A stretch of DNA of 64,000 nt from Gemmatimonadota bacterium (GTDB taxonomy: Bacteria > Gemmatimonadota > Gemmatimonadetes > Palauibacterales > Palauibacteraceae). The position numbers and the translations under genes are program-made. The stretch lies in contig OZ220691.1 of the NCBI GenBank assembly GCA_965116475.1, positions 1,472,001 through 1,536,000 on the forward strand, read 5' to 3'. The notes beneath the pieces are model-generated. The model saw only the letters and a list, made by a program, of their open reading frames with translations. It had not been told where the DNA came from and searched no databases. This document shows, in pieces, positions 9,038 through 39,512 of this stretch. Each line of letters opens with the position of its first letter. Position 1 is the stretch's first letter.

Positions 9038-9097
9038 CTCTCGTATGTGGGAATCGTTGTCCGACATGCGCGGCCCTCACGCTGCGAATTGGATTGT

Positions 9098-9124
9098 GGT
9101 CGATAACTGGTAGTTATCAACCGC
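9098..9124 (+). other. Putative tyrosine-recombinase site (left), lox-like
   Basis: GGTCGATAACTGGTAGTTATCAACCGC: dyad arms GGTCGATAA/TTATCAACC around an asymmetric CTGGTAG core; exact reverse complement of 10255-10281. Confidence 0.8.
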
Positions 9125-15800: not shown

Positions 15801-16015
15801 ACGGTCTGGCCGAGGGCCGCCAGCGTGTCTGCCTCGGGGGACACGGAGACCGTGCTCACCACCGGGGGCGCGGGAGCGGGAGGAGGAGCCGGTTGGACGG
15901 GGTCATCGCCGCAGGACAGCGCCAGCATGGCGACGCCCGCGATGGCTATGGCCGGGAGCGCGAACCCCGCCGCCGACCGTCCCGGTCTCGGGAGCCTTCT
16001 CGATGGCGACCTCAC
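12829..16015 (-). CDS. LRR lipoprotein with Ig-like domain and HELGH zinc-metallopeptidase domain; single frameshift near 13158
   Basis: Lipobox LALSC; many LxGxIPxELGxL repeats; VVAHELGHNL...DVMSYC. The true C-terminus (LFSFSFGMEEIAHG...SRGIP) is in the frame of ORF 12829..13116 and matches the paralog's end. GTG start overlaps the upstream stop. Confidence 0.85.
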
Positions 16016-19000
16016 GGACGGCTGGTGGTCAGATCGGGAATCCCGCGGCTGAACAACACCTCCAGGCCCGGTTGCAGCTCGGACAGGGCGGCGGCCCGGT
16101 CGCGCAGCGCTGCGACGCCGAACTCCGGCGCACCGCCGGAGCGCAGGACGGCTCGCACCTGGCGGGTGACCAGGTCGCGAACGACGGCCACGGCCCGGTC
16201 GCCCTCTCCGTCCAGGGTGAAGGAGCGCTCGTTCCCGGACAGGGTGATGCTCGCCAGCGCCGTCCAATCCGGCATGACCGGCACGGCGAACGCGAACCTC
16301 GATCCTCCGTCGCCATCGGCCAGCGGCGGCAGCGCGAATTCCAGCGAGAACAGACGTCTCCCGTCCGCCGCCGCTCCGACGATCGTGTACCCGCCTCCGC
16401 CCCGAGGCGGAAGGCTCGGTGGCGCGCGGACCGCGAGCGCGGGTTCGAGAAACGGCGTGCCGTCCGGCTCGACCCCGCCCCAGATCAGGATCGAGCGGGC
16501 GGGGACGGCGGCCCGTGCCGCTTCCTCCGCCATGCGATAGTCCAGCGCTACGTTGAAACTGTAGTCGCTGATCCACGCGGGATCGCAATACGACATCAGA
16601 TCATAGGTCAGTGCCGGAGACACGAGCGCGCCCCGGCGGAAGTCGTACCCCCAGCTGCCGATCGATCCATCGGCCTGCGGGAAAAAGGGATCGAGTGCGC
16701 TGGCTCTGCACGGCGCATGACGGAGGCTGAAGTTGTGCCCCAGCTCGTGCGCCATGATGTCCGGGTCGAGGACCGCGTAGGTTACCCGCCCGCCGGTCAC
16801 AGCCAATCCTCCGATGCCGCTCGACAGTCCGGCGATCGTGCCCATGTAGTGCCCGGCAGCGCCCTCCATGGCGCGAATCGCGATCACTTCGCCGATGATC
16901 TCGCCCGGACTGCCGGCCGACGTCTCGACGGGTTCGTGGATCGTCAGGTCGATCTCCCCGACGGGCAGAAGCGTGTGCGTGCTCTGAAACAACGCGTCTT
17001 CCGGAGTCAGTCCATCCGTGCGGTCCAGGATCGATGAATCCGGATTCGTCGTGGAGAGAAACGGCACCAGGGTGAGGTCCAGCGCCGGCGGGGCCCGGAC
17101 GGCGACCGGCAAACGCCCCTCCGCGGGCACGCGCCTGCCGAGACTCAGCGAGGGATTCAGGGTTCCGTCCGGGTCTATCTCGACGACCAGCTCGAGACCG
17201 GGTTGAATGACCTCCGCCGGGATCTCCGCGTTCAGAGAAGATGACAGCGACGACTCATCCACTTCGCTCCCCAGCGCACCGCCCGGCGCACCGATGTCCA
17301 CCCGGTGGACTTCCTCATCGCCATTGAAGAAGAGGGCGCGCGCCGGCGGCAGGCCTTCGCCGGCGGCGTTCGCGGCGACCGGGAACACGCGGAGCAGGGC
17401 GGGCTCGTTCGCAATCAGCGACACGGGGAATTCCAGCGACTGTACCGCCTGCGTGAGATAGGCCGCCGATGCCGATGCATCCCGGCAGGTCCGGAGCCGA
17501 TGCGTGACTCCGGAGAGCCATTCCCGCAGGGAGTCGGGCGCGCACAGGCCGGTGCCGCCGGCCCACAACTCATCGAGATGCAGCAGGTTCGACAGGCTGG
17601 CCGGCAGCGGCCCGGACAGCGCCGCGTTGTTCGACAGCCGCAACATGACGAGACTCGTCAGATGCCCCAGTTCCGGCGGCACGGCGCCCTCGAGGTTGTT
17701 GGAGGCGATGTTCAGCCACGTCAAGCCGGCGAGGCCGCCCAGTTCCGGCGGAATGGCGCCCTCGAGCTGGTTGAAGGAGAGGTCGAGCCGCGCGAGGCGA
17801 GTGAGGCCGCCCAATTCCGGCGGAATGGCGCCGGCCAGCTCGTTGCGCTGAAGATTGAGGCTTACCAGTTCCGTCAGGTTGGCAATCAGTTCGAGCGGCG
17901 CGGCGCCGGCCAACCTGTTGTTGGAGATTCTGAGGATCCTCAGCCGGCGGAGATTCGCCAATTCGGGCGGGAGCGACGTGAACTGATTGTCGGGCAGGTC
18001 GAGATAGGTCAGCGAGGACAGGTTCCCGATCACCGGCGGAAGAGACGTCAGTCGAGTCCTCGCAAGAGAAAGAAAGTCCAGTTGAGGGAGGTCGCCCAGT
18101 TCGGGCGGAACGGACGTCAGGCCGGTGTTGGCGAGATTGAGGTGTTCCAGCCTGGCGAGCCTGCCGATCTCGGCGGGAATCCCGGTCAACCGCGGGTTGG
18201 CGGTGAAGCTCAGCGTCTCCAGGCTCGAGAGATCGCCGATCTCCGCCGGGACGGCTCCCGCGAGCCCGTTGCGGAGCATGTCGATGTACACGACCCGTCC
18301 CGACTCGTCGACGCGGATGCCGTGCCAGGTCTCGAGCGGCGCGTCGGTGAGCCAGTTGTCGTCGTTCGCCCAGCCGGGACCGCCCGTCGCGTGGTAGAAG
18401 GCCTCCAGAGCCGCCCGGTCTGGATTGTCCGCCGTCGCCGCGACCAGGGCGGACGCGTTACTGGCGGTCGCCTCCAGTGCCTGTGCGCCCACCGCCGGCC
18501 CGAGCGTCCACACCGTCCGCGCGAGGCCCACCGTATCGCTCGGCGCCTCGGCGGGGTCCGCCGTCCCGTGGCCGGCCTCGGGCGTGAACGTGATCGAGAC
18601 TCCGGCGACCGGCGAACCGCCCGCGTCCACCACCCGCACGACGACCGGTTCGGGCAGCGGCGTCCCCGCCAGCGCTCGCTGGTCCTCGCCCGACACCGTC
18701 TCCAAAGACGCCGGGGCCTGCTCCACCGCCACCGCCGCCGTCGCGCGCAGTCCCTCGAACGCGGCCGCCACGGTCCCGGAACCGTTCGACACGGCGGTGA
18801 CCGTGCCGCCCGCATCGACCGTGAACACCGCCGGATCGCTGCTGGTCCACTCCACCGTTCCCGCGTAGGACTGGCCATGCTGGTCCACGATCGACGCGGT
18901 GAATGAGACCGTCTCCCCGAGAGACACCAGGGTCGCCGATGCCGGTGTCACCGCGATCGACGCTGCCCGCGGCGGCTCCGCCGGGGGCCGGGGCGCCACG

Positions 19001-19065
19001 GGGGCTTCGCCCTCGCCGCACGCGACCGCGATCAGCATGACCACCGCGGCCGCACCATTCTTCAC
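16012..19065 (-). CDS. LRR lipoprotein with Ig-like domains and HELGH metallopeptidase domain (paralog)
   Basis: MKNGAAAVVMLIAVAC lipobox; LRRs LEGAIPPELGGL; IMAHELGHNF...YDLMSYC. Confidence 0.9.
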   Translation of the reverse strand: MKNGAAAVVMLIAVACGEGEAPVAPRPPAEPPRAASIAVTPASATLVSLGETVSFTASIVDQHGQSYAGTVEWTSSDPAVFTVDAGGTVTAVSNGSGTVAAAFEGLRATAAVAVEQAPASLETVSGEDQRALAGTPLPEPVVVRVVDAGGSPVAGVSITFTPEAGHGTADPAEAPSDTVGLARTVWTLGPAVGAQALEATASNASALVAATADNPDRAALEAFYHATGGPGWANDDNWLTDAPLETWHGIRVDESGRVVYIDMLRNGLAGAVPAEIGDLSSLETLSFTANPRLTGIPAEIGRLARLEHLNLANTGLTSVPPELGDLPQLDFLSLARTRLTSLPPVIGNLSSLTYLDLPDNQFTSLPPELANLRRLRILRISNNRLAGAAPLELIANLTELVSLNLQRNELAGAIPPELGGLTRLARLDLSFNQLEGAIPPELGGLAGLTWLNIASNNLEGAVPPELGHLTSLVMLRLSNNAALSGPLPASLSNLLHLDELWAGGTGLCAPDSLREWLSGVTHRLRTCRDASASAAYLTQAVQSLEFPVSLIANEPALLRVFPVAANAAGEGLPPARALFFNGDEEVHRVDIGAPGGALGSEVDESSLSSSLNAEIPAEVIQPGLELVVEIDPDGTLNPSLSLGRRVPAEGRLPVAVRAPPALDLTLVPFLSTTNPDSSILDRTDGLTPEDALFQSTHTLLPVGEIDLTIHEPVETSAGSPGEIIGEVIAIRAMEGAAGHYMGTIAGLSSGIGGLAVTGGRVTYAVLDPDIMAHELGHNFSLRHAPCRASALDPFFPQADGSIGSWGYDFRRGALVSPALTYDLMSYCDPAWISDYSFNVALDYRMAEEAARAAVPARSILIWGGVEPDGTPFLEPALAVRAPPSLPPRGGGGYTIVGAAADGRRLFSLEFALPPLADGDGGSRFAFAVPVMPDWTALASITLSGNERSFTLDGEGDRAVAVVRDLVTRQVRAVLRSGGAPEFGVAALRDRAAALSELQPGLEVLFSRGIPDLTTSRP

Positions 19066-19774
19066 GATCGACCCGCCCGCCGGATGGTGCGACGATCGCG
19101 GTTGTCGAAGTAGGCGCATTCGGCGAGCCGGTCGCCGTCGTCCGCGCCGGCCTCCGCAATTTCGATGTGCTGACGGCTGAAGGGCTTATAGGGAAAGAGC
19201 CCTCGTCCGTACCTCTCCACCGGAAACTCGAGGTTCCGTGCGCGCTCCAGGTCGTAGTGCGATCCCGCATCCACGAACCGCATCACGTAGGCTGCGCGTC
19301 TCGGAAGCGGTCCCTCGCCGAGCATGACGCTGCGGTGGATGACCATCTTGTTGAACAGGAGCGCGTCGCCGGGCTCGAAATCGTCTTCGACCCGGTGGTT
19401 CTCGAGGATCTCGACCATGGTTGGCGAGTTGAGGACCCCCGAACGCAGGGAGAAGTACTCGGTAACGCTGGTCTCGACTCCGCTGCGCTCCTTGGCCCGC
19501 ATGGTCGAGACGACTGCCGGCTCGATCTGGTGGAAGACGAAGTCGCCCGATACCACGTGCTGCGGGACATAGGCCATTCCGCCGCCCTGTGCCGCGAATC
19601 GACCCTGAAATTGCTGCCTCCCCCGCGACCCATTTCGACTTCGACGCGGTCGAGCAGCGTCGAGACGACACGATCGTTGAGAAAGCCCTTGAGCATGACG
19701 AAGCCATCGCGCCGGAAAGCCTCCTTGTGCTCTCCGGTGATGGCGAAGTCGCTGTCGAAGGGATGGCCGTCCAC
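19062..19774 (-). pseudogene. Phytanoyl-CoA dioxygenase (PhyH)-like gene with internal deletion/frameshift
   Basis: N-terminus EAFRRDGFVMLKGFL in one frame; C-terminus FEPGDALLFNKMVIHRS...RRAAYVMRF in another; junction near 19590; no central HxD segment seen. Confidence 0.7.
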
Positions 19775-26830: not shown

Positions 26831-27455
26831 CGCGCAACCCGACTGTCAAGCAACCGCGCAGAAGCGGAAACCGCGGCGCTCCGCCCCGACGTTGCCCTCG
26901 GTATCCGAAGGGGATCGGACAACACCGGAAAGCACTATCAAATAAACCCTTACGAGTCCTCTACAACCACCCAAATCGGGAGCCTGGAAACGGTGCTACG
27001 CTATCGGTCGGAGAGGCCGGCGAGGGTCACAAGATTCGGGTGTAGCAAGATGTTGATGATGCGCAGTTGAGACCGCGGTGGACCTTGGTGTTACAGCCGG
27101 TAAGGCTCCGAGGACATCTGCCCCCGGTGCCGAGACCGTCACCTTTGCAACCAGCATGTCAGGGTCCATGATGAACGCACGATTTCGGGTCACGGCCCCA
27201 GGAAGGCTTCCTGGGATGGCGCTCCGGCGGGTCGAACTGATCGATCTCCCAAGACTTCCTGCTGCCCGACCTCGGGCGCGGGTCGAGCTCTTGCCTGTGC
27301 AGCATGTGGTCATTCGGGCGGCTACGGGGGGGGCAGAGGCGTTGCCAGCGGACGCTCGATGGGGATCCGCGTGCGAATCGAGAGAGGGCACCGCGGGTCA
27401 CGTGGCCGAGCGCCCCCTCGTTCGCTGGCCCTGGTCCCTCGGGTTAGATTCCACC

Positions 27456-29006
27456 ATGCCACCGCTCGCCCTCAAGCCTGATGCCAGCTTCTTTCGGAAG
27501 ATTGCCCTCGGTGCGGTCGGCAGCCGACACGTGGCGCAGGATCTGGAGCGGATGGGACACCAAATCGTCGAGCTCGAACGCGGCGCGATGGACACGAAGC
27601 TCTGGAAAGATGTCAAGCGCAAGCGCGTCCGTATCCCCGACCTCGTTTGCGAGCGGTGCGGGCTTCGCATCGAGAGCCGCGCGAAGACGCGGCCCGAATT
27701 GTCGATGTCCCATAGCTCCGCCGACCATGAGCGCGCGTGGGATTTCGGTATGGTGAACATCGACGTAATCGCCTTCCCGGTGTGCAAGGCAGGCGAAGAC
27801 GAACAGTGGAGCGCCGGTCGGCTGCAGGAGCCGGTCTCCTACTGGCACGAGCGCAACTGGATCCGGTGGCATGCCGAAGGTAGGGTGAACTACGTGCGGG
27901 TCGCTCGGTTCAGGACTGTGTCGCCGGACGGTGCGACGACCAAGGGCGTTACCGAAGGATCGGAGACCAGCGTCACGTGGAAGGCGTGGTTCTCCAGCCG
28001 AGACGGCTTCGTAGAATCGGTCACGGGTCAGAGGATCACGACTGTGCGAGCCAGCGATGGACATCGTTACACTCGCACGGTGCCCGAGGAGCTCCAAATC
28101 ACCGTAGCCCCTGGCGACGAAATCGCGCTCAATCAGATCCTCGCGTCGAGAGTCAGGCCGGAGAACGACGACGACCTGCGCTGCCCCGGTGAGTGGCCCG
28201 AGGGTCACCTTTCGCAGCTTCTGGCGTCCCGCGAGCGGACCCAGCGGTTCACCGGAGTGAAGCTCGCGAGGCTCCGGCAGGACGACGCCGTTGGCACGGC
28301 CGTTGCGAGTCTCGAGCGCGATCATGAAGAGGACATGTACATCCGCTTGGAGGCAGCCGCCTACCTTGTCGCCGTCCGTGACGCGAGCGCGGAGCACCTC
28401 TTCGCACCATACTTGGCGAACCCCGATGAGCAGATCCGGCTCGAGGCCGTGATTTCGTTGGCGGAAGCCGGCACCGAGGAGTGCGTGAGGATGCTGAGCG
28501 CGATCTTGGACGATCACCAGCGCCCGTACTTCGCACGCAGCGCGGCGGCTTGGTCGTTGAGCCGCATCGGCGGTTCGGAAGCGTGCTCACGCCTCGTGAG
28601 AGCGTTCGGGGATGTGGATCAAGACCTCCGCGAAGAGGCTCTCGAGGGCATCATCAGCCTAGACTCGGACGCAGTACCCCTACTCCTTTCGGGGCTGCAG
28701 GAGGTGGATCCGGCGGTCGCGGCGGGATGCGCCGAGGCGCTGCGCCAGCACGGTGCGCTACCGGACGGGACCATCCAAGAGCTGACCGCGCAACTTGCCG
28801 GTGGGAATCCCTCCGTATGGGCCGTTTGGTTGGCCGGTCACCTGCCTAGAGAACGGCTGACGGGGGCGGTTGCGGATCTCCAAGAAACGGCACCGGCACT
28901 CCACTACGCGATTACGCTGCTTTGGTCGTTCGTCGAGAGCTGGATCGCGCGGCGGTGGGAACTGCAGCCGGAAGCGAACTTCCCAGGTACGGATGGTGGA
29001 CGATGA
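27456..29006 (+). CDS. Putative restriction endonuclease (PD-(D/E)XK-like with CxxC) fused to C-terminal HEAT repeats
   Basis: RIPDLVCERCGLRIESRAK; HEAT-like IRLEAAAYL, IRLEAVISL, ARSAAAWSL, LREEALEGI; ATGA-coupled to the methylase. Confidence 0.65.
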   Translation: MPPLALKPDASFFRKIALGAVGSRHVAQDLERMGHQIVELERGAMDTKLWKDVKRKRVRIPDLVCERCGLRIESRAKTRPELSMSHSSADHERAWDFGMVNIDVIAFPVCKAGEDEQWSAGRLQEPVSYWHERNWIRWHAEGRVNYVRVARFRTVSPDGATTKGVTEGSETSVTWKAWFSSRDGFVESVTGQRITTVRASDGHRYTRTVPEELQITVAPGDEIALNQILASRVRPENDDDLRCPGEWPEGHLSQLLASRERTQRFTGVKLARLRQDDAVGTAVASLERDHEEDMYIRLEAAAYLVAVRDASAEHLFAPYLANPDEQIRLEAVISLAEAGTEECVRMLSAILDDHQRPYFARSAAAWSLSRIGGSEACSRLVRAFGDVDQDLREEALEGIISLDSDAVPLLLSGLQEVDPAVAAGCAEALRQHGALPDGTIQELTAQLAGGNPSVWAVWLAGHLPRERLTGAVADLQETAPALHYAITLLWSFVESWIARRWELQPEANFPGTDGGR

Positions 29007-29998
29007 AGCTGGACCTTCCGAGCGAGAAGCAGGTCTATCGGACGCCCCGCGGTCTCCAGCTCTGCGGGGATAGCGCGGAACTCCTCACGCACCTGCCGGA
29101 AAAATCGGTGGACTTGGTCATGACCAGCCCGCCCTTTGCGCTGCTGCGGCAGAAGGCTTACGGCAACAAACGGCAGGACGAGTACGTCGAATGGCTGGGG
29201 CGGTTTGGAGAAGCTGCTCTCCGTGTGCTAAAGGACAGTGGCAGCTTCGTTCTCGACCTCGGCGGAGCCTATAAACGCGGCAAGCCCGTGCGCTCGCTCT
29301 ATAACTACCGTGTCCTGCTGGACTTCTGTGATCGCCTCGGCTACGAGTTGGCAGAAGAGTTCTTCTGGTTCAATCCGTCGAAGCTGCCGTCGCCAATTGA
29401 ATGGGTCAACAAGCGGAAGATCCGAGCCAAGGATTCGGTAAACACGGTCTGGTGGTTTTCGCGTTCGGCAGAGCCGAAGGCGGATGTCACCCGTGTCCTA
29501 GTGCCGTATTCCGAGAGTATGAAAAAGCTGCTCAAGAACCCCGACAAGTACTATCGGCCCACAGTGCGACCTTCCGGGCACGGTATCGCAAAGGCCTTCG
29601 CCAGGGACAACGGCGGCGCGATTCCATCGAACCTGCTCCAGATTCCCAATACGGAGAGCAATTCGAGCTATCTGCGGCTGTGCAAGATGCTGCAGCGAGA
29701 CAGACACCCAGCGAGATTCCCCAGCGCGCTCCCACGGTTCTTTATCCAGTTCCTTACCGATCCAGGAGATGTGGTCGTGGATATCTTCTCTGGCTCGAAC
29801 ACCACGGGCCAAGTCGCGGAAGAACTAGGTCGTCAATGGATCAGTATGGAGCTTAGCCGAGAGTACGCTGCCCTTTCAGCCGTGCGCTTCATGGAAGGTT
29901 GGAGCGATGACGAGGTACGCGCTACCGTCTCTAGGCTCGATGCTGGCGAAATGATCGAGATCGACCTCGGCTTATTGTTCCAAGCGGTGCCGGGGTAA
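29003..29998 (+). CDS. Beta-class N4-cytosine DNA methyltransferase, M.PvuII-like
   Basis: TSPPF, WFNPSKLPSPIEWVNKRKIR, HPARFP and DIFSGSNTTG closely match M.PvuII as recalled. Confidence 0.92.
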   Translation: MKLDLPSEKQVYRTPRGLQLCGDSAELLTHLPEKSVDLVMTSPPFALLRQKAYGNKRQDEYVEWLGRFGEAALRVLKDSGSFVLDLGGAYKRGKPVRSLYNYRVLLDFCDRLGYELAEEFFWFNPSKLPSPIEWVNKRKIRAKDSVNTVWWFSRSAEPKADVTRVLVPYSESMKKLLKNPDKYYRPTVRPSGHGIAKAFARDNGGAIPSNLLQIPNTESNSSYLRLCKMLQRDRHPARFPSALPRFFIQFLTDPGDVVVDIFSGSNTTGQVAEELGRQWISMELSREYAALSAVRFMEGWSDDEVRATVSRLDAGEMIEIDLGLLFQAVPG

Positions 29999-30121
29999 GG
30001 ACCGACCGCACTCTGAAGGTCAGCGATGCAGGGCCTCCCACCCGCAAATGCAGAATCGAGAAGCTGTACGCGGAGCGCGGGTCTGCGGTCTACAGTGATG
30101 TTGGGTGATGGGTTCACGCCC

Positions 30122-30433
30122 CTAGTAGGCTACCTCGGTGTCGACGACATCGACACATGTTTGCGGGCGTGTTGCGCGTGGGGCTGTCTGCCATCCATGG
30201 TGGGGTGCCGATGCCACGCGGCTTAGCTCCAACACACGCATACATCTCCAATTGTCCGCCGGGTTGGTGCTGAGTCCGCTGCCGCTTCCTCCGCCAGACT
30301 GGTAGCTGAGGACGTTCCAAACACCGTTCTTCGTGCCAATCACGTGAGGACACAGGATCCGCCGTTTGCCCAGATAGGTTGCGGAAATGGGTTGTTTGCA
30401 CCTTATCGCATGGCGGATTAGCTGGACAATCAT
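30122..30433 (-). CDS. Stand-alone WYL-like domain protein
   Basis: IRHAI...ISATYLGKRRILCPHVIG...WRCMRV pattern; GGAGAGGAG RBS. Confidence 0.65.
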   Translation of the reverse strand: MIVQLIRHAIRCKQPISATYLGKRRILCPHVIGTKNGVWNVLSYQSGGGSGSGLSTNPADNWRCMRVLELSRVASAPHHGWQTAPRATRPQTCVDVVDTEVAY

Positions 30434-30459
30434 CGTCTCCTCTCCGTGGTCAGGATTGC

Positions 30460-33360
30460 CTAGGCGTCACGCCTACCGAATAGCTCTTCGAAAGTCGGCG
30501 GGCTGCCGGTGTGGGGGACCCTTGAAGACGTTGTTGGCTCCAACTGCGGTTCGCCGTCTAGGACCCCCAGGAACACCAGATCCCTCCCCACCCGCGTGAT
30601 CATGTGGTTCTCGGGCGTGACTACGAATTTCCCTCCGCGCTTGAGCTGGAAGACCAGGGCAGCCGCCGTCGCGACATCGACGTTGGTTATTCGCCGGCGC
30701 CCGTCCCGAGTGTTCTTGAAAGGTCTGGCCGATGCGTCCACATGGTATTCCCTGCCCGCATAGGCGCCCGGATACGGATCACCGGGCGTGAGGTCGTCGA
30801 CCTCGAATTCGGGGAGAGTCTCCTCTTCCCACCCTGATTCAAGGTCCGGAGGTTGCCCCTCGCGCCAATCGCCTCCGGGCGACCCTGGCTCTGTCGGTGG
30901 GAACCAGTGAATCCAGCGAATCTGGCTGGATCCCAATTGCTCCGCCCAATCGGTACCGTGGAAGATTCGCTCGTCCGTCGTGTCCCTTACGAAAATGACG
31001 TAGAGCTTGGCTGCGCTATTCTTGCCAGCCGCCCGTCGGAGGATCCGGCCGGTCGTCTGGATGCGTTGGCGAACGGAACTGGAAGAGGCCCGAATGATCC
31101 CCACATTGGCGGCCGGAACATCGACACCTTCCACCAGGGCCTTCACGGAGAGCATCACGTTTGCCCAGCCCTCCCGAAAGAACTCCATCGAGATCTCGTT
31201 CCACAGGGGCTTCGATCGCCCCGAGTGATACATGACCGCGCGAAATGCCCGATTCCACAGCAGCTCTGCAAGTTGATTGTTGATGGCTCGTTCCACCGGG
31301 CCGAGCTGACGGGCCTTCCGCCGATCCATCGGCGCAACGACCTCTTGAACGTTCTCGATGCGTTCGTCGAAAACGATGATGCGGTCTTCCTGGCCGTCAC
31401 TGCGGACCGCGTGTTTCGCGACGATATCCAGATAGGCCCACTTCCTGTTCCGCGCCCGATAGACGAGCTCCTTCCTCTCCCGGACGGCCTCGAAGTACTT
31501 GGGGATGGCGGGATCCGGTTTCTCGTCGCCATGCAGGATCGTGTGGAGACGTGCGTAAAACGGTCCTGGCATCGCGTCGATTCGCGGCCCGTACCGTTGG
31601 CGAATCTTCTGCAAGGCGGTCCGAATACGCTTGCTGTACGCCTCGTATTGAGTACGCTCTGAAGTGCTGAGTTCGACGCCCACGTAGTAGACTTCGAAGG
31701 GTTGGACGACACCGTCGGATCTTGCCTGCTGGTACGTGTATTCGTAGACCAGGGACCCTAGCTCCGACAACAGCGGGTCATCGGACTCCTCAGAGCCCTC
31801 CCCGCTGTTCGCCCGGGAGGAGTCCCCCAGCGTGGCAGAGAGTCCCATGCTGAAATCGTAGCGTGCGCCGAAGGCCCGACGGAATGCTCGGCCACGGTAT
31901 CGATGGCATTCATCCGCAATCAGGAGATGAGGCGTGTTCGGCGGCAGGCTCGCTGCGTCTTTCTTGAGCTGGTCATCAAGGATCGCCGAGTTGATGATGT
32001 TTACGACGATTCTCCGGCCTTCAACAAACCCGTCTTTGTGCCCATCTCCACGGAGCCCGACGTCATCCGGCGGGACACCCAGTAAGCGGACAAGCTCCAT
32101 GACCCACTGGTACATGAGTACCTTGGTGGGCACGAGGACGCTCACGCGGAGTTCGGGGTGCGACTCGAGCAGCCGCTCGATGGCCAGAAGCGCCAGAAAG
32201 GTCTTCCCCGCTCCCGTAACGACTTGGAGAACGCCTCGACCTCCAGCGTCGCTCCAGCAGCGGAGCGCTTCCGACTGCCAACGGTAGGGCGCCAGAGACG
32301 GAGCGAGCGAGTAGTCGGATCCGGGGTGCTTCAGTTCGCGAAGGGCCCGACCTGACAGGCCTGCCCCCGAGGAGCCCAGACTCAATTCCGCCTGTTCCAC
32401 CTTCCCTTCGGCGAGGTGGTCTCGTATTCGGACGAGCTTGGCCGCGTTACGGACGTTCTCGACCCGGTGTCCGAGCGAAGCGTCGTAGTCGGCGATCTCG
32501 GACCTCAGGTCGGACAAGGTGCGCTGGCTGCGGTCAATTTCACTGCGGATCTCAGACTTCAGGGTCCTCGAGTAGCGGTTCGTGAAGAGCTGGTCGCGAG
32601 TCTCTCGGATCGGGGTCCGTCTTCCCTTGCCACCACTCTCCCGCCACATGAAGAGTTTCGTCAGATCGATCCACTGCGATTGGTCGAGTATGTCGGTGGA
32701 AAAGGGATCGATCGTGGCGAGGATGCGCTCGATCCGGTGATAAGTATCGCGTTTCCTCAGACTGGGCCGACGACGCCGTCCACGCGCTGTGACGACTCGT
32801 TTTCTGCCTTGGAGTTCGACCCAACCTGCAAACTCCATGACCCGAAGCGTCTCTGAGACGGTCCGCGCTCCATGTCGATCGCCACCGTCGTACCGACCGG
32901 TTCCGCCGGCCGGATCGATCTTCAAACGGTCCCAGAGTTGCGTTACGCCCAGGCCAGTTTCGGAGTTATCGAGGGCAGACAGCAGGTCGTAGGCAAGCTG
33001 AAGGCCATCTGGCCACCACCAGCACCACTTGAGGATCGTCTTGTCAACGTACTCTTCGAAACCGTCGGGCGAGCCGTCCCACTTTCCATCCCACGAAAAC
33101 CGTCCGAAGGGGAAGCGGTCGGGCGGCAGAATCCGGCGCCCGGAACGCCCCAGGAATCCGATCCCTGCAAGGTTGGAAACGAGTCCGGCGACCATCCCCT
33201 CACCGTAGGGCCGGCCGTCCTCACGGATCAGTTCTTCGCGGACCAACTTCCTGCATTCCTCCACCGTGGGCTCAGCCAGAGAGGCCTGATAACACACCCA
33301 GTACTGTGCCCTGTTGCGCGGCATGGGGTAGAGCGTCGGAAGTCTGACTCCGCGGGACAC
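30460..33360 (-). CDS. SF2 helicase (XPB/Rad25-like) with N-terminal wHTH-like region and uncharacterised C-terminal domain
   Basis: PYRWQ, VTGAGKT, IADECH, GLSAT, LVEGVDVP, RIQTTGRILR. Confidence 0.9.
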   Translation of the reverse strand: MSRGVRLPTLYPMPRNRAQYWVCYQASLAEPTVEECRKLVREELIREDGRPYGEGMVAGLVSNLAGIGFLGRSGRRILPPDRFPFGRFSWDGKWDGSPDGFEEYVDKTILKWCWWWPDGLQLAYDLLSALDNSETGLGVTQLWDRLKIDPAGGTGRYDGGDRHGARTVSETLRVMEFAGWVELQGRKRVVTARGRRRRPSLRKRDTYHRIERILATIDPFSTDILDQSQWIDLTKLFMWRESGGKGRRTPIRETRDQLFTNRYSRTLKSEIRSEIDRSQRTLSDLRSEIADYDASLGHRVENVRNAAKLVRIRDHLAEGKVEQAELSLGSSGAGLSGRALRELKHPGSDYSLAPSLAPYRWQSEALRCWSDAGGRGVLQVVTGAGKTFLALLAIERLLESHPELRVSVLVPTKVLMYQWVMELVRLLGVPPDDVGLRGDGHKDGFVEGRRIVVNIINSAILDDQLKKDAASLPPNTPHLLIADECHRYRGRAFRRAFGARYDFSMGLSATLGDSSRANSGEGSEESDDPLLSELGSLVYEYTYQQARSDGVVQPFEVYYVGVELSTSERTQYEAYSKRIRTALQKIRQRYGPRIDAMPGPFYARLHTILHGDEKPDPAIPKYFEAVRERKELVYRARNRKWAYLDIVAKHAVRSDGQEDRIIVFDERIENVQEVVAPMDRRKARQLGPVERAINNQLAELLWNRAFRAVMYHSGRSKPLWNEISMEFFREGWANVMLSVKALVEGVDVPAANVGIIRASSSSVRQRIQTTGRILRRAAGKNSAAKLYVIFVRDTTDERIFHGTDWAEQLGSSQIRWIHWFPPTEPGSPGGDWREGQPPDLESGWEEETLPEFEVDDLTPGDPYPGAYAGREYHVDASARPFKNTRDGRRRITNVDVATAAALVFQLKRGGKFVVTPENHMITRVGRDLVFLGVLDGEPQLEPTTSSRVPHTGSPPTFEELFGRRDA

Positions 33361-33363
33361 CCT

Positions 33364-34182
33364 CTACGCCTCTTTTCCATCGTCTTCTGGTGGAGACGAC
33401 TCGAATGCCGTCCAGGGAGGTTCGCCGTGGTCGAACTCGGAGAGCCGCCCTACGTACAGGGGACGACAACCCTTGGTTGCTTCAATGCGCTCCCGGAGCA
33501 GTCGCAGCGTGGCGGACGCCCGGGCTTCCTTAAGGTCCTCGAGTTGCGATCGCTGAAGACGTCGAAACTGGGTCCGATGGTCCGGGTTGAGGTCACCGTC
33601 AGGCACGTTCATCCACACGCAGCCGGATTCAGTGATGTAGATCCGGCCTCCCCCCGGCCGCAGGTCCAGACAGGCTGAGACCAGGTCTGGATATCCGCGC
33701 GTTGAGGAGAAGACGTGACCACGCGACTTCCATTCGAGGCGGTTCCGCAACTGGGTGTTGGGGGAGACACGCCAATACTCACCGTGCATGAAGGGGAGGC
33801 CGGGCCAGTACATGCCCCGAGTCAGCGTTGCCGGTGCGTTGTCGATGCCGGGGAACACAAGGTCGTCTTCGTAGATTCCCACGTACCGGGGCTCCCACCA
33901 GGTGCCACCGCCCCTCAGCACCTTGGTAATCACTGCCCCGTGTGGGGTAACCCGGAACGAACCGTTGCCTCCCTTGACCGCGCGAACAGTATCGGCCAGC
34001 TGCCGTGGATATGGTTCGGCCCGGACGCTCAGAGGATCACGGTACCAGCCCACGTACGTTAGTCCCCCGCCGCGGCGTACTTTGTACCGACTGCCGCGGT
34101 ACGGGGCCGGCCACGGTTCACCTGGACGAACGGATCGGGTCTCGCCGTTGGCGCCCTGCACGTTGATCGAACGGAGTCTCAT
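33364..34182 (-). CDS. Hypothetical protein with two copies of an unrecognised domain
   Basis: WPAPYRGSRY...GSFRVTPHGAV...PRYVG and WPGLPFMHGEYW...RPGGGRIYITESGCV...PLYVG; TGATG-coupled to the upstream gene. Confidence 0.8.
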   Translation of the reverse strand: MRLRSINVQGANGETRSVRPGEPWPAPYRGSRYKVRRGGGLTYVGWYRDPLSVRAEPYPRQLADTVRAVKGGNGSFRVTPHGAVITKVLRGGGTWWEPRYVGIYEDDLVFPGIDNAPATLTRGMYWPGLPFMHGEYWRVSPNTQLRNRLEWKSRGHVFSSTRGYPDLVSACLDLRPGGGRIYITESGCVWMNVPDGDLNPDHRTQFRRLQRSQLEDLKEARASATLRLLRERIEATKGCRPLYVGRLSEFDHGEPPWTAFESSPPEDDGKEA

Positions 34183-35015
34183 CAGTTGTCCTCCCGATCC
34201 AGGGCGTCTTCGTGCTCCGCGAGCGGATCGAACGGTGCCGGCGCATTGTCCTCAATCGCCTCTCCGTACTGCGACAGGAAGGCCATGAGGTCGGCTTCCT
34301 CGCCTGGAGTGAGCGGGGCGGAGAGATCGATTGCTTCATGTAGCGTGAATCCGCCCGAGTACTCACCGAGGAACACGGGCAGCAGTGCGACGTTGCGCAT
34401 CTTCACTTCGATGAGGCGCTTCTGGAGGTCCGTGAGCGCCTCGTACTGGTCCTTCATCCGCGCCGGCAACGGTTGTGGCTCAATGAGAGCGAGCACCTTG
34501 CCGTTCTCTGTGACTCGTATGGAGCCCCCGTCGGGCTTCACTTTTCGGAAGCGAGCTTCGATCTCAGCCGGCAACGTCTCCCGGGTCTTCTGCCACACGC
34601 CATCGGCGGAGTTCTTCCACCAAAGGCGACCCCCCTTGTAGGAATACCGGGCACCGTCGTAGAAGGACGGCCACAGCCCGAGGGGCGGGACGCCGCTGCC
34701 CAGGACGTCCACGGAGGCGAACTCCAAGGGGACATCGTAGTCGGCGACATACACGGCCTCCCAGGTGTCGGTCGGCATTCTGGTAAGGACGACGCCGGTC
34801 TCGGTAATGCGGAGACTCCCGCCCTCGGGCCTGAGCGAGAGGTAGGCGTCGGCGACCTCTTGGAATCCACCGGTGGCCGCGACCCTCACGGTCGCCATGT
34901 TTTGGCGGTCAGGAAGCCCCCACCAGAACTCGCCATCAGGCTTGCAGTGGTACTTGGTACCCCGGTAGTGCTCATCCCACCTGTCTCCGCAGCTCCGTGT
35001 TCTCCCTTGCGTCAC
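34182..35015 (-). CDS. Hypothetical protein with two copies of the same domain (paralog of the neighbour)
   Basis: WDEHYRGTKY...RPEGGSLRITETGVV...AVYVA and WPSFYDGARY...KPDGGSIRVTENGKV...PVFLG; AGGAG upstream. Confidence 0.8.
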   Translation of the reverse strand: MTQGRTRSCGDRWDEHYRGTKYHCKPDGEFWWGLPDRQNMATVRVAATGGFQEVADAYLSLRPEGGSLRITETGVVLTRMPTDTWEAVYVADYDVPLEFASVDVLGSGVPPLGLWPSFYDGARYSYKGGRLWWKNSADGVWQKTRETLPAEIEARFRKVKPDGGSIRVTENGKVLALIEPQPLPARMKDQYEALTDLQKRLIEVKMRNVALLPVFLGEYSGGFTLHEAIDLSAPLTPGEEADLMAFLSQYGEAIEDNAPAPFDPLAEHEDALDREDN

Positions 35016-35091
35016 TTACTTGGTCTCCTGGTCAATGTGGAGAGCGCTGCCATTCCGCTCGTGCGCTCGTCCTGCCTCGTCGCGATTCACG

Positions 35092-35679
35092 CTAGCCTGT
35101 GGGCTGGTCGCTGCCATCAGGCCGCGCGGTAGTGCTCCTCAGCCGAGGGGGCAGCAGCTTGTCGATCTCGTCGTCGGAGAAGGTCAACTCCTCCAACTGT
35201 TGCAGCGCCTTTTGAGCCTCCGTATACGCTCGAACCGTCGTACTGGGTGCTCCTGCGTAGACGGCGTGCAATTGCTCGAGAAGCGCGTCGCGCCGCAATC
35301 GAATGTTCTCGACGGACTCATCCCCAACTCGCAGATCTGTGATGAGCGATAGGTATTCCTCGCGGATGAGCCATAGCTCCGCTCCGGACTGGCGGTGCTT
35401 CTGCGCGAGCTTACCGAGGTCGTAGTCCTTGGTGTATGTATTCAACGCGACGAGCGTCGCAGAAACGACGAGACCGATGGCCGTGCCGACATCCCCGGTT
35501 CCGAAGAACGCGGAAATGAAGCTCCCCGTCGTCACGGACGCGAGAATGATCTGCGCGAGCTTGATCCTGGACAGCCTCGTCAGAAGGAGGTCCGCGCACT
35601 TCTCATGTGCCTTGTGGGAATAGACGACGCGCCCATAGCAGTCGCGCAGTTGAGCTTCGATGTAGTCTCTGGAATCCAT
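35092..35679 (-). CDS. SLATT-domain 2TM effector
   Basis: YGRVVYSHKAHEKCAD, two TM helices, LWLIREEYLSLITD, FSDDEIDKLLP; directly downstream of the SMODS gene. Confidence 0.85.
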   Translation of the reverse strand: MDSRDYIEAQLRDCYGRVVYSHKAHEKCADLLLTRLSRIKLAQIILASVTTGSFISAFFGTGDVGTAIGLVVSATLVALNTYTKDYDLGKLAQKHRQSGAELWLIREEYLSLITDLRVGDESVENIRLRRDALLEQLHAVYAGAPSTTVRAYTEAQKALQQLEELTFSDDEIDKLLPPRLRSTTARPDGSDQPTG

Positions 35680-35686
35680 GGGCGTC

Positions 35687-36571
35687 TCAGCTCGGGAATG
35701 AGGTGCCAAAGATCTCCCTCCACTTCTGTTTCGCCGACCACTCCCGCTTCGGATCGGCCGTCTCGTGCCCGATGGCCTCGCATGCCAGGTTGTAGCCGCG
35801 TCTCGCCTTGTACTGGAACTGACCTTTGGGGCCGTACACCCGTTGGCCGCTCCCGGGGGCCTTCCAATACTGCTGTTCTTTGTCCTGGCGGGCCATGAAA
35901 TCGAAGAAGTCGCGGCACATCCAGTCGTAGTAGAGGTAGGATTCGTCGCGGTGCTTCCACGAGTCGATGAACTGATACGCCAGCGTGTCAATGAGAAGGC
36001 CACCGATGGGCACGGCCATCTTGGTCTTCCAAGCCCGCATCATTCGGCACAGCGGGATCAGGTTGCCATTGCAGGCATCGTTGCGGGTGCGAATAGCCTC
36101 GATCTCCGGTCTCGGGTTCGTCTTCTTCCAGCTCCCGCCGCCGTTCGAGTCGGGGTAGGTGTAGCTGCCGTCCTTGTTGGTGAAGGCGGGAACGAGATCG
36201 AACCTGATGGAATCCCCGAAGGAAACCACGATCACCTGGCCGTCCGCCCCGATGTCCGTAGCGGGGTAGGTCTTCCTGACCGACGCGCGGACGGCTTGCA
36301 GCAGCGCGGATTGGCCATTGCCGACGTGGCTGTCGTACTGCTGGTAGACCGAGTAGGGCAACTGGAAGATCATGTCCACGTCGCTCGTGCCATGAATGGC
36401 TGTATTGCGACCGTACGAGCCGACCTGGAGGCTATGCGCGGTGTCCGATGTCGTTGTCCAGAAGTCGGTATTCAGCCGTCGGGTGATGCTCTTGTATCGG
36501 CTGGAGATCGTCGCTCCGTTCTTGACCTGTATGTTGCCGCAGAACGTGCTGAACCAGGAGGCGAGCCCCAT
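35687..36571 (-). CDS. SMODS/CD-NTase nucleotidyltransferase (CBASS-type cyclase)
   Basis: VGSYGRNTAIHGTSDVDM, FDLVPAF, WKKTNP, LCRMMRAWK, C-terminal KWREIFG. Confidence 0.88.
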   Translation of the reverse strand: MGLASWFSTFCGNIQVKNGATISSRYKSITRRLNTDFWTTTSDTAHSLQVGSYGRNTAIHGTSDVDMIFQLPYSVYQQYDSHVGNGQSALLQAVRASVRKTYPATDIGADGQVIVVSFGDSIRFDLVPAFTNKDGSYTYPDSNGGGSWKKTNPRPEIEAIRTRNDACNGNLIPLCRMMRAWKTKMAVPIGGLLIDTLAYQFIDSWKHRDESYLYYDWMCRDFFDFMARQDKEQQYWKAPGSGQRVYGPKGQFQYKARRGYNLACEAIGHETADPKREWSAKQKWREIFGTSFPS

Positions 36572-37114
36572 CAGAGAGCCTCCAGTTTCTTCTCAGGGTC
36601 GAGCTGGATGTCAGCGTCGTCGGCGGTCGTGAAGTCCTCTTGGAACAGTTGCCCGACGATCTCGCTCTCAACGGCCATGTCCTCGTGGAGCTTCATTCGA
36701 GCGGCCGCCTTCGAGGACCTCCGCGGGCGGGTCGGAATCCTTCCCGGCCGCGACCTCCTCCCAGAACTTCTAATCGTCGCTCTACTTGGCTTCATTCCTT
36801 GCCTGCCTTATCAAATGTTCCCGAGTCTCTTGGTGGAGGGGGAGGAGTTGATGGAACATCATCGGCATCTGCCGTCGGACCAACAGAGCCGCCACCCTCG
36901 AAGCGTCTGCGACGTCCGCCCGACTGCTCCTCCCGTTGGGACGCAAGCACGGTAGGAGGGGTGTCGGGTTGGGGTCAAACTTCCTGCGATTCCTAATGCT
37001 CGATCTTTGGAGTCCGTTACTCCTCCTAGGACAAGAGCGCAAGCGCCACGTCGTGGGTGCCGTCGGGCCAGTGGAGGGGGGGGCACTCGGCCCGGTTCCA
37101 CAGCTCGGGCTAGG

Positions 37115-38154
37115 TGTCGTTGCTAAGGACGTTGTTCACAGGAGCTCCTGGAGCCGGCTGAGCGGCGGCTGGTCTCCGATTGCGGTGTGACCGCGTCGTT
37201 CATTGTATCGTCGCTGGAAGTGAGCCAGGGCGGCCGTCCGGTGCGCCGAGGTCCGGTAGGGCCTCTGGTAAGCCCACTCTCTGAGCGCGGTCTGGATGAA
37301 GCGCTCCGCCTTCCCGTTCGTCTGAGGCCGGTACGGCCGGGTCCGGATGTGCCGGATCCCGAGGCGTCCCAGGCTGTCGGCGAACCGGTGTGAGACATAG
37401 CCGCTCCCGTTGTCGGTCATCACGCGCTCCACGCTGACGCCCAGCGCCGCGAAGAAGGCTACGGCGCGCTCGGCGAAGGCCGTCACCGTCACCGCCCGCT
37501 CGTTGGCGAGGACTTCGCTGTAGGAGAGGCGCGTCGCGTCGTCCACGCACACATGCAGGTACTCCCAGCCCACACACGGCGAGGACCGCCGTCGGTCTCC
37601 GTGGATCCGGTGCCCCACGCACCCGATCCGCCCCAGCTTCTTCGTGTCCAGGTGCAGCAGTTCGCCGGGACGGTCCCGCTCGTAGCGCACCGGCGTCTCC
37701 TTCACCTCCAGATCCCGCAGCCGGCCCATGCCCAGACGCCGCAGCCACAGGCTCACCGTCGAGCGGGGGATGGAAAGAAAGCGGGCGATCTTCGCCCCCG
37801 TCCAGCGCCGCTTCCTGAGCCGCCGGATCCTCTTCACGTGCCACCGCGGAAGCCGCGTCGGGCTCGCGTGCGGACGAGAGGACCGGTCCAGCAGACCCGC
37901 CTTCCCCTTGGCCTCGTATCGACCCACCCACTTGTACGCCGTCCGGCAGCTCACGCCCTGCGCTCGGGCCGCCTCCGCCGGCGTCCAGCCTTCCTCGAGT
38001 ACGCGGCGAACGAGCAGGGCTCGCCCCGCGGGCGTCAGCCTCGCATTCTGGTGCATGTTCACTGGAGCCTCCGGTGACTGGTTGGTGAGAACCTCTCATT
38101 CACCTCCCAGCCTGCTCGCCGGAGCTTCAGTGAACAACCTCCTTAGCCTTCACA
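37115..38154 (-). mobile_element. IS481-family insertion sequence (1040 bp)
   Basis: Imperfect 25-bp terminal IRs TGTCGTTGCTAAGGACGTTGTTCAC / TGTGAAGGCTAAGGAGGTTGTTCAC, each flanked by CTAG. Confidence 0.92.
37136..38062 (-). CDS. IS481 transposase
   Basis: HQNARLTPAGR, LHLDTKKLG, VMTDNG, PQTNGKAERF (DDE). Confidence 0.95.
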   Translation of the reverse strand: MNMHQNARLTPAGRALLVRRVLEEGWTPAEAARAQGVSCRTAYKWVGRYEAKGKAGLLDRSSRPHASPTRLPRWHVKRIRRLRKRRWTGAKIARFLSIPRSTVSLWLRRLGMGRLRDLEVKETPVRYERDRPGELLHLDTKKLGRIGCVGHRIHGDRRRSSPCVGWEYLHVCVDDATRLSYSEVLANERAVTVTAFAERAVAFFAALGVSVERVMTDNGSGYVSHRFADSLGRLGIRHIRTRPYRPQTNGKAERFIQTALREWAYQRPYRTSAHRTAALAHFQRRYNERRGHTAIGDQPPLSRLQELL

Positions 38155-38193
38155 CCTAGAGGGCGCCTCCCCGACCACTCAAATGGGGGGACG

Positions 38194-39512
38194 TGAAGTG
38201 AGCCCCAAAAGGTTGGACGCCGGACCTCCGGGTTTATTGTGCGGCTCAGCCCTCTCGGTAGAAGTCCTCGAGGATCTCCAGGGGTGGCCGGTCTCCGAGG
38301 GAGGAGTGACGGCGCACCCGATTGTAGTAGTTGATCCGGTCCCGGACGACGGCCGCGAGCTCTTCCAGCGAGCTGGCGTCCAGGATGAGCGACCAGTTCT
38401 CCACCTTGAACCGGCCGAAGAAGCTCTCCATCTCCGGGTTGTCCCGGGGTCCGTGGAGCGCGTAGGAGAGCCGCGCGCCCGCCGATGGCAACCGTCCGGT
38501 CCACGCGTAGCCGGTGAACACCGGGTCTTGGTCCTGGTGGACGATGACGCCCTCGAGCGAGGCCCGGGAAGCGGACGACGGCCTCCAAGCCGAGAGGGCG
38601 AGCTCGGAGTTGGCCCGCTCGCCGAGGCCGAAGCCCGCAACGTACTTCGTGGCGTGGTCAAGGAGCAGGATCAGCCACGCCTTTCTCGTCCCGGCGGCGT
38701 GGTGGAGTTCGGTGAAGTCCGTGTACAGGACGTCCAGCGGTCCGATCTCCGACTTCGACCGCCCCGACAGCAGGTTCGCGCATGGACCCGCCGGATCGAT
38801 GGCCCGCCGGATCGGGCTCGGCTTCAACCGGGTCACCGTGCGCCTCAAGGGCAGATCCCACAGCCGGTTCAGCCGCTCCACGACCTTCCGGTTCACCCGG
38901 TGACCGTACGTCTCTCGCAGCTCCGCCGCCGCCCGCCGGTACCCGTACTCCGGGTGCGCCTCGGCGATCGCCGTCAGCGGCGCCTCCAAGTGCGCGTACT
39001 TCTCCGCGCACGGGACCTTCGTCCGCGTGTGGTAGTAGCACGTCGAGCGCGAGAGCCCGACAGCCCTGAGCGAGGGCCCCAGACCGTACGCCTCTCACGC
39101 GCCGGAGACGAGCCCCACCTTCTCGGCCGCGTTCAGCCGCTCCGGCCCAAGAAATTTTTTAGAAGCGCGATCTCCACCTCCTTCCTGCCCAGGAGCTGCT
39201 CCAGGTCGCGGATCCGCCGCTCGTACTCCTTCACCGCCGTGTCCTCGGCGAAGATCTCCGGCGCCCGCTCCACGAAGTGCCGCCTCCAGAGCCCCACCGA
39301 GTTCGGATGTACCCCGTACGCCTTGGCCACCTGCCCGGGCGTCTTCTCGCCCGAGAGCACCTCGAGCACCACCTGCGCCTTCAGCTTGGGCGTGTACCGC
39401 CGCCGTGCCATGCCGACCTCCTCCCGGTCTGCCACGTTCTACCCTGAGCAGCACCGCGCCCGGAGGTCAAACGTCACAAATGGCCGGTGCCCAGGATCTG
39501 CGGGTCATATCC
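38194..39512 (-). mobile_element. IS3-family element, probably inactive
   Basis: orfA 39133-39411 (RYTPKLKAQVVLEVL) ending at an A6 slippery run; orfB YGYRR, TDFTE, HQDQD, EMESFFG, YYNRVRRHSSL; in-frame TGA near 39095; degenerate IRs, ends approximate. Confidence 0.85.

Follow-up and report, generated by a model that had tools for sequence, protein, structure and literature searches.

A window of 64,000 nucleotides (nt) of a Gemmatimonadota genome (contig OZ220691.1, positions 1,472,001 to 1,536,000) contains an operon in which two paralogous genes, here called A and B, are followed by a gene for a superfamily 2 (SF2) helicase. Together, the three genes appear to constitute a conserved, horizontally mobile and hitherto undescribed module, which most likely, if by no means certainly, defends its hosts against viruses or plasmids. 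The module is marked by a domain of about 85 residues, present in five copies distributed over the three proteins, and by the recurrence of the trio in bacteria, archaea and haloarchaeal megaplasmids. The signature proteins A and B form a family not yet recorded in the libraries searched.

All four genes of the operon lie head to tail on the minus strand. Gene A (34182-35015) is translated into a protein of 277 amino acids (aa) with two domain copies, and gene B (33364-34182) into its 272-aa paralogue, also with two copies. They are followed by the helicase gene (30460-33360; 966 aa, one C-terminal copy) and by a small WYL-like gene (30122-30433; 103 aa). A and B overlap by 1 nt, the gap between B and the helicase gene is 3 nt and that between the helicase gene and the small gene is 26 nt. 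These open reading frame (ORF) positions confirm the coordinates and the spacing given in an earlier interpretation of the same stretch, made from the letters alone and referred to here as the sequence-only reading.

The central proposal of that reading, namely that one domain is repeated five times in the operon, is borne out by three kinds of comparison. Copies A1 and A2 correspond to residues 9-96 and 111-222 of A (window 34728-34991 and 34350-34685), the second carrying a helical insertion; copies B1 and B2 correspond to residues 20-106 and 122-250 of B (33865-34125 and 33433-33819), the latter with a longer helical insertion; and the helicase copy, H5, covers residues 858-945 (30526-30789). 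A and B are aligned by BLASTP over their full length (E=2e-10, 25% identity), and an off-register alignment of the second half of A with the first half of B (E=0.005) reveals the internal duplication. When Smith-Waterman scores were set against 300 shuffles per pair, seven of the ten copy pairs reached z>=5 and A2-H5 gave z=2.7, while B1-B2 (z 0.2) and B2-H5 (z 0.1) were at chance and are linked only through A1. Furthermore, profiles were built with one class of copies left out and compared with 900 shuffled decoys, the best of which scored 6.5 bits. The profile lacking the A copies recovered A1 and A2 at 38.8 and 31.4 bits, that lacking the B copies recovered B1 and B2 at 43.1 and 16.1 bits, and that lacking the helicase copies recovered helicase residues 859-925 at 13.4 bits (E=0.0028). 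BLASTP, shuffle scores and held-out profiles therefore agree that the copies are related beyond shuffled decoys. The reverse test was weak, a profile of helicase copies alone giving 6.3 and 6.7 bits to A and B against 2.8 for the best shuffle, and H5 is thus the least secure of the five. This copy is conserved at the same position in 12 of 12 aligned helicases and in four haloarchaeal helicases. In an alignment of 25 copies, made up of the five positional classes from each of five systems, two glycines are fully conserved and a single threonine almost fully, all of them located in the motifs listed in the sequence-only reading.

The domain has been modelled with good confidence values. The AlphaFold2 model of A (mean pLDDT 85.6, pTM 0.78) consists of two strand-strand-strand-helix-strand-strand-strand units, the second with two extra helices before its last strand, and a single copy folded with the 25-copy alignment gave the same topology (pLDDT 87.6). 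Foldseek found no match at E<=0.001 for full-length A against the PDB (best E=0.068, TM <=0.18), for the single domain against the PDB (best E=0.41, TMq <=0.33) or for the single domain against BFVD (best E=0.27). The commonest top matches were sliding clamps (PCNA, 9-1-1, beta clamp and UL42), all insignificant and with TM <=0.39; being at noise level, the clamp fold is kept as a lead and rejected as an assignment.

Sequence searches gave a similar picture. Neither A nor B has a match in Pfam, NCBIfam, PADLOC or PHROGs, profiles of the domain and of A found nothing better than E=0.03 among PDB sequences, and an ESM Atlas search with A returned no usable match. PADLOC-DB 2.0.0 (2023) holds no family for the A and B proteins of the window at E<=0.1, nor for their orthologues in two of the loci described below (L006 and L008) at E<=1e-5. 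Literature searches, whose coverage stopped short of subscription journals and supplements, found no description of the operon or the domain. The view that both are unrecognised has accordingly held in every library consulted: the domain is absent from Pfam, NCBIfam, PADLOC, PHROGs, PDB sequences and the Foldseek PDB and BFVD sets, and the operon matches no system in PADLOC 2.0.0.

The motor of the helicase occupies residues 353-791 (window 30988-32304) and is matched by Pfam ResIII (64 bits), DEAD and Helicase_C; its Walker A (GAGKT) and DECH motifs are both intact. The motor is preceded by a basic N-terminal region of about 345 aa (32326-33360), for which no match was found in Pfam and none better than E=0.03 among PDB sequences. 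Winged helix-turn-helix domains, as proposed for this region in the sequence-only reading, are hinted at only by ESM Atlas leads below 0.8 to FokI recognition (0.79) and winged helix-turn-helix domains, which are at noise level. The peptide LPTLYPMP in the N-terminal region, GAGKT, ADECHRY, motif VI and the C-terminal domain copy are kept in 12 of 12 aligned helicases, which also conserve a C-terminal tail peptide, PPTFEELFG. Among known families, the best PADLOC match is PbeA (6.9e-53, profile positions 248-631 of 672 only), the best NCBIfam match TIGR04095 (1.4e-40; 139.6 bits against a cut-off of 600), and the best PDB sequence relatives are archaeal XPB proteins, XPB-Bax1 entries included (E=2.9e-14, residues 721-795 only). 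The description of the enzyme as XPB-like is therefore correct for the C-terminal lobe of the motor and fails for the protein as a whole, which falls below the XPB family cut-offs.

The trio is not restricted to the window. Family A comprises 34 clusters at 90% identity in a collection of 5.8 billion proteins, and a scan of one genome per species found at least eight loci (L001-L008): five in Gemmatimonadota, two in Methanomassiliicoccales archaea and one in a Porphyromonadaceae bacterium. The Gemmatimonadota loci belong to Longimicrobiales and Candidatus Palauibacter and are 87-95% identical to the window. In 8/8 genome loci A, B and helicase are contiguous and in the same order. Moreover, a tblastn search of 72,556 plasmids showed that five haloarchaeal megaplasmids carry the module. 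Three of the five, from Natrinema, Halobaculum and Halalkaliarchaeum, have the A-B-helicase arrangement; on those of Halorhabdus and Haloferax, A and the helicase gene stand together, and a true B-type gene, with two domain copies and B-profile scores of 187.8 and 153.9 bits, is separated from them by about 7 kb and comes immediately after an Mrr_cat nuclease gene. Altogether, the three genes co-occur in all 13 loci outside the window and are contiguous and in order in 11 of them, mostly among known defence genes, in keeping with the earlier suggestion that they belong to one system. Searches with A against 50,697 phage records, and with P0138, a short two-copy protein, against the plasmids, gave no match.

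Some of these loci show additional genes close to the module. Directly upstream of A, a gene of 211-268 aa is present in L006 (879-1514), L007 (9268-9903) and L008 (6903-7709), conserved between Methanomassiliicoccales and Porphyromonadaceae (E=4e-33) and with no library match. By eye, its N-terminus is ribbon-helix-helix-like, and the Porphyromonadaceae copy has a Cys-rich insert; as it has no counterpart in Gemmatimonadota or haloarchaea, it does not count as a core gene. In the Halorhabdus and Haloferax loci (L010 1849-8778 and L012 1431-8823), the pair formed by the Mrr_cat nuclease gene and the B-type gene lies near the module, an SNF2-family helicase gene and gene A are divergently oriented, and Halorhabdus adds a 1095-aa protein with no Pfam match. 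All of these may make up, with the module, a more extensive version of the system.

Of the 13 other loci, 11 have known defence genes as neighbours. CBASS genes are found in L001 and L005, as in the window itself; a GmrSD/Orf5-like type IV enzyme in L002; CapP and an E1/E2-like gene in L003; type II and IIG restriction-modification (RM) genes in L006; EVE-NucS-like nucleases, a DpnI-like enzyme and an LmuB-like ATPase in L007; C5 and Dam methyltransferases and a GmrSD_N protein in L008; a prokaryotic Argonaute (pAgo) in the Natrinema locus (L009); Mrr_cat nuclease genes together with the SNF2-family gene in L010 and L012; and AbiEi, type I R and S genes and a helicase+DUF790 pair in the Halobaculum locus (L011). 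L004 was compared with the window's own neighbours only, and there the HEAT-repeat ORF and the methyltransferase that adjoin the operon are present; the annotation of L013 names no defence gene.

Two of these neighbourhoods deserve a closer description. On Natrinema pellirubrum pNATPE02, the Piwi-domain (pAgo) gene (L009 4583-6667) is situated 2.4 kb upstream of the module, and the helicase gene is followed closely by an ArdC-N/ImmA-like gene. In L007, the stretch immediately before the module (6242-9106) has a UDG-like gene between two paralogous genes for EVE plus NucS-like PD-(D/E)xK proteins, both of which match the PADLOC candidate PDC-S02.

The domain itself is rare. Its 25-copy profile found, among 1.84 billion representative proteins, only 239 matches at E<=0.001, of which 86 at E<=1e-10. 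Architectures were read in the 150 matches listed of these 239 and in the proteins from the searches above. Among the matches listed, two-copy proteins of 200-330 aa are the commonest; at least 12 full-length helicases of 665-1133 aa besides that of the window have one C-terminal copy, and five further proteins are apparent helicase fragments. The profile scores of these proteins separate 88 A-type and 35 B-type members from 53 ambiguous ones, a set skewed to the A type because 34 of its members came from the search with A.

Links with nucleases, absent from the sequence-only reading, were found at several points of this family. Among 36 longer or sampled matches scanned, four proteins of 550-574 aa carry a NERD nuclease domain at the N-terminus and an A-type copy pair after it, and one fragment combines the C-terminus of a superfamily 1 helicase, an MTES_1575 nuclease and two copies; another protein joins two copies to TPR repeats. 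A weak match to NERD/Card1 (E=0.007, below the cut-off) was also obtained for the second gene upstream of A on the plasmids of Halobaculum and Halalkaliarchaeum, and in the product of this gene a D...ExK-like motif can be read by eye.

A maximum-likelihood tree of the 25 copies, drawn from five systems of Gemmatimonadota, Methanomassiliicoccales and Porphyromonadaceae, recovered each positional class as one group (H5 100/98, B2 100/99, A2 97/92, B1 89/84, A1 71/65), which indicates that the five-copy layout is ancestral to the bacterial and archaeal systems sampled. A2 groups with B2 (81/86) and H5 with B1 (83/78), and the tandem duplication would thus be older than the split between A and B; the deeper joins, where long branches meet, are tentative. 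The helicase copy is of the insertion-free type. The distribution of charge, too, is consistent. In 5/5 systems, the core of A is neutral and its tail acidic (net -8 to -14), the core of B is basic (net +3 to +19) and so is the N-terminus of the helicase (+7 to +26), the values in the window being -14 for the C-terminal tail of A and +15 for the B core.

On this basis, the following mechanism can be proposed. A and B, with two domain copies each, would pair with each other, and the helicase would dock onto them via its own C-terminal copy. DNA would be bound by B, through its basic core, and by the helicase, through its basic N-terminal region. The helicase, whose Walker A and DECH motifs are intact, is predicted to translocate using ATP; the acidic tail of A and the C-terminal peptide of the helicase may serve as regulatory or docking elements. 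The output would come from a nuclease that varies with the lineage, whether the NERD part of a fusion with an A-type protein, the product, with its weak NERD/Card1 match, of the second gene upstream of A, or an Mrr-type enzyme encoded beside B. Since the operon of the window has no recognisable nuclease, its effector could act in trans or be cryptic, or translocation by the helicase alone might be the output. The WYL-like gene and the convergent methyltransferase would be neighbours or lineage-specific accessories.

Hetero-oligomer assembly through the domain, as the sequence-only reading had supposed, is plausible by analogy with XPB and p52 in TFIIH; the other role supposed there, the reading of nucleic acids or modified bases by the domain, is conjectural. 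The part of the TFIIH literature consulted (PMC6422496) offers this pair as a precedent for a helicase joining its partner through paired homologous domains. A structure prediction for the complex of A, B and helicase residues 845-966, run with their own alignments, scored 0.09 against a mark of 0.32 and counts neither way. A further step, in which the five copies would form a pseudo-symmetric platform or ring holding an XPB/PbeA-like translocase on DNA and offering a universal socket to interchangeable NERD, Mrr and MTES_1575 nucleases, can be imagined and is rather unlikely.

The small WYL-like gene does not seem to take part in this machinery. Against Pfam WYL (PF13280) it scores 13.7 bits (E=0.062), its orthologues reach 18.8 and 15.8 bits, and the cut-off is 21.8; against the PADLOC WYL profile, E=7.7e-4. 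It is present in four of the 13 other loci (L001, L002, L004 and L005), all of them in Gemmatimonadota, and absent from the other nine. The family to which it belongs comprises 55 clusters, some from Moraxella and Shewanella, one member being named a YafY-type regulator by one source, and occurs also on ColE1-type plasmids of 4.6-11.8 kb in E. coli and Shigella. The proposal that a WYL gene is part of the system is thus not supported, in view of its presence in only 4/13 loci, its score below the Pfam cut-off and the occurrence of its family alone on E. coli plasmids. The gene is not a core component and is regarded here as an accessory restricted to one lineage or as an independent neighbour. 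The plasmid homologues (L014 1122-1436; L015 4001-4315) always come just after an unrelated gene of 100 aa, whose product has a hydrophobic N-terminus, and the pair may be a small two-gene cassette.

The closest profile match to the SF2 motor is PbeA, from the DndCDEA-PbeABCD system, which is centred on a CxC ABC-ATPase, and both motors are encoded in conflict-system neighbourhoods. PMC10853773 describes PbeA as a fusion of an HKD nuclease with an SF2 helicase, its partners being PbeC (a CxC ABC ATPase), PbeD (a DndE cognate) and PbeB (small and disordered). The HKD part of PbeA is missing here, however: the PbeA profiles align only from position 248 onwards, to helicase residues 353-791, and Pfam gives no PLD/HKD match on the helicase or its orthologues. 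PbeB, PbeC and PbeD likewise gave no match in a scan that covered A, B, the small gene and 21 neighbouring ORFs (16-45 kb of the window). With HKD, CxC ABC ATPase and DndE cognate all lacking a match, the operon is not a Pbe system.

As regards XPB/Rad25, the C-terminal RecA lobe of the helicase resembles archaeal XPB, but the scores fall below the family cut-offs for NCBIfam repair_heli_XPB (47.2 against 610), TIGR00603 rad25 (15 against 328.7) and ERCC3_RAD25_C (20.7 against 27). The arrangement also differs from that of XPB and its partners p52 and p8 in eukaryotic TFIIH, since the common domain is C-terminal on the helicase rather than N-terminal and is present in five copies over three proteins; moreover, as Foldseek gave no significant PDB match, the fold of the TFIIH/XPB domain is not recognised in it. 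Bax1 (DUF790), the nuclease that accompanies XPB in archaeal operons, has no match in the operon or its neighbours, and a helicase+DUF790 pair occurs only in the Halobaculum locus, about 8 kb away. Hachiman (HamA/HamB), in which an SF2 helicase is encoded with a partner in a helicase-plus-nuclease type of organisation, likewise combines such a helicase with small partner proteins in defence islands, and relatives of the module carry nucleases of the PD-(D/E)xK type (NERD, Mrr_cat). Matches to HamB profiles, however, are confined to short stretches around Walker A (E 6e-5 to 0.05), there is no HamA-like match, and the partner proteins of the module come from a family absent from PADLOC 2.0.0. 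Finally, the R subunits of type I and III restriction enzymes have in common with the helicase the ResIII motor, and REase_I profiles match it weakly (E=8e-4), but the operon includes no nuclease domain and no Mod or HsdM/HsdS. By sequence, the operon is therefore a candidate member of the helicase-centred defence modules, with an A/B family that is itself new to the libraries searched.

Other roles have been considered for the trio. It might be the restriction half of an RM-like system, in which self DNA would bear the mark of the adjacent methyltransferase, and DNA with no mark or a wrong one would be the target of the helicase complex. A DNA methyltransferase gene does adjoin the helicase end in the window and in 8/8 genome loci, and the N-lobe of the helicase matches Pfam ResIII; the window and L001-L005 have homologous N6/N4 enzymes, L006 and L007 a different N6/N4 enzyme whose gene is convergent with and overlaps the helicase gene, and L008 C5 and Dam methyltransferases 1.3 kb downstream. 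Nevertheless, the methyltransferases of the three lineages are not orthologous, that of the window matching those of L006 and L007 only at E~1e-6 over a short motif. In the window, L001, L002, L004 and L005 the methyltransferase gene belongs to an operon of its own with a HEAT-repeat gene, and none is annotated within 9 kb in the five haloarchaeal plasmid loci (for which the PLSDB gene tables are incomplete), where L011 has only the R and S genes of a type I system. Besides, defence islands commonly contain methyltransferases. A restriction role of this kind is accordingly regarded as improbable, though worth bearing in mind.

A housekeeping or stress DNA repair complex of the XPB type, similar to archaeal XPB-Bax1, would agree with the solved structures, as the closest helicase relatives among them are archaeal XPB proteins, including XPB-Bax1 entries, and with the weak matches to Pfam ERCC3_RAD25_C and NCBIfam XPB. 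The XPB matches extend over no more than about 75 residues of the C-terminal lobe and remain far under the family cut-offs (47 bits against 610 and 20.7 against 27), no Bax1/DUF790 gene is present in the operon, and Halobaculum has, besides the module, a separate XPB-like helicase with DUF790 nearby. Moreover, the domain family is rare and patchy (239 of 1.84 billion), scattered over unrelated phyla and megaplasmids and placed in low-G+C islands beside insertion sequence (IS) elements; with such a distribution and setting, a role in repair is unlikely, and the XPB-Bax1-type complex as such is given very little credence. Similarly, the machinery of a mobile element, for its own replication, maintenance or counter-defence, which would account for its travelling with islands, could be suspected from the five of 13 loci that are on haloarchaeal megaplasmids, from the transposase genes (IS481 and IS3) at 2-4 kb from the module in the window and from the ArdC-N/ImmA-like gene after the Natrinema helicase. 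Across the loci, however, the module shows no constant association with an integrase, replication initiator or conjugation gene, the phage records searched gave no match, and the neighbours that recur are defence genes, so that this explanation, too, is very improbable.

The defence reading is thus the preferred one, and several points weigh against it. The main gap is that the operon of the window is without a recognisable nuclease, no such domain or other effector domain having been recognised in it with Pfam, PADLOC or NCBIfam. The conserved residues of the domain indicate neither DNA binding nor catalysis, and the homology of H5 has modest scores (13.4 bits). The 13 loci collapse to about four independent lineages. 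Their defence-island context, read without an enrichment statistic, with L004 outside the defence scan and L013 showing none, is suggestive. Finally, we infer the defence role of every member from its sequence and surroundings, and the physical contact between A, B and helicase would follow from analogy.

The setting of the operon in the window agrees with the flanks assigned to it in the sequence-only reading, an RM side and a CBASS side. At the helicase end, the operon converges with a gene for a type II N6/N4 DNA methyltransferase (28922-29998, plus strand), preceded on its 5' side by the HEAT-repeat ORF; the pair spans 27078-29998 on the plus strand and accompanies the module in L001, L002, L004 and L005. 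The HEAT repeats lie at about residues 400-575, the true start is probably an internal Met, and, by eye, the N-terminal 270 residues or so might be the endonuclease half of an RM pair. Directly upstream of gene A, a CBASS pair (35092-36571, minus strand) includes a SMODS cyclase (35687-36571; PADLOC Cyclase 3.6e-140) and a SLATT_4 effector with two transmembrane segments (35092-36003), the listed ORF of which overlaps the cyclase, so that its true start is probably later. This pair is found also in L001 and L005 but not in L002 or L004, and is therefore a separate cassette.

Next to the CBASS pair there are transposase genes (37136-39435) of the IS481 family (37136-38062) and the IS3 family (38246-38989 and 39133-39435), all on the minus strand, which may mark an island boundary. 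The G+C content of the island is 0.55-0.65, against 0.68-0.73 in its flanks. The window contains no tRNA gene, hence none marks the edge of the island, and a promoter and terminator scan of 29800-36800 was uninformative. Farther away, and unrelated to the module, a large protein encoded at 16012-19119 (minus strand) has Big_2, leucine-rich-repeat and M66/reprolysin-like metalloprotease domains.

If the module does defend cells, it would be a new system, with signature proteins in no recorded family and a fold unmatched by the solved structures searched. Should the platform arrangement prove true, it would define a new class of helicase-adaptor immune sensor common to bacteria and archaea, parallel to the recruitment of XPB by TFIIH through paired homologous domains. 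The occurrence of one domain on a helicase, on both its partners and on several nucleases leads to a testable principle for the way in which immune helicases may recruit partners and exchange effectors. Furthermore, the module has been transferred between domains of life, as is shown by its occurrence in Gemmatimonadota associated with sponges, in archaea related to methanogens, in Bacteroidota and on plasmids of haloarchaea, and, as the haloarchaeal copies reside in cultivable and genetically tractable organisms, the question of their function is directly testable.

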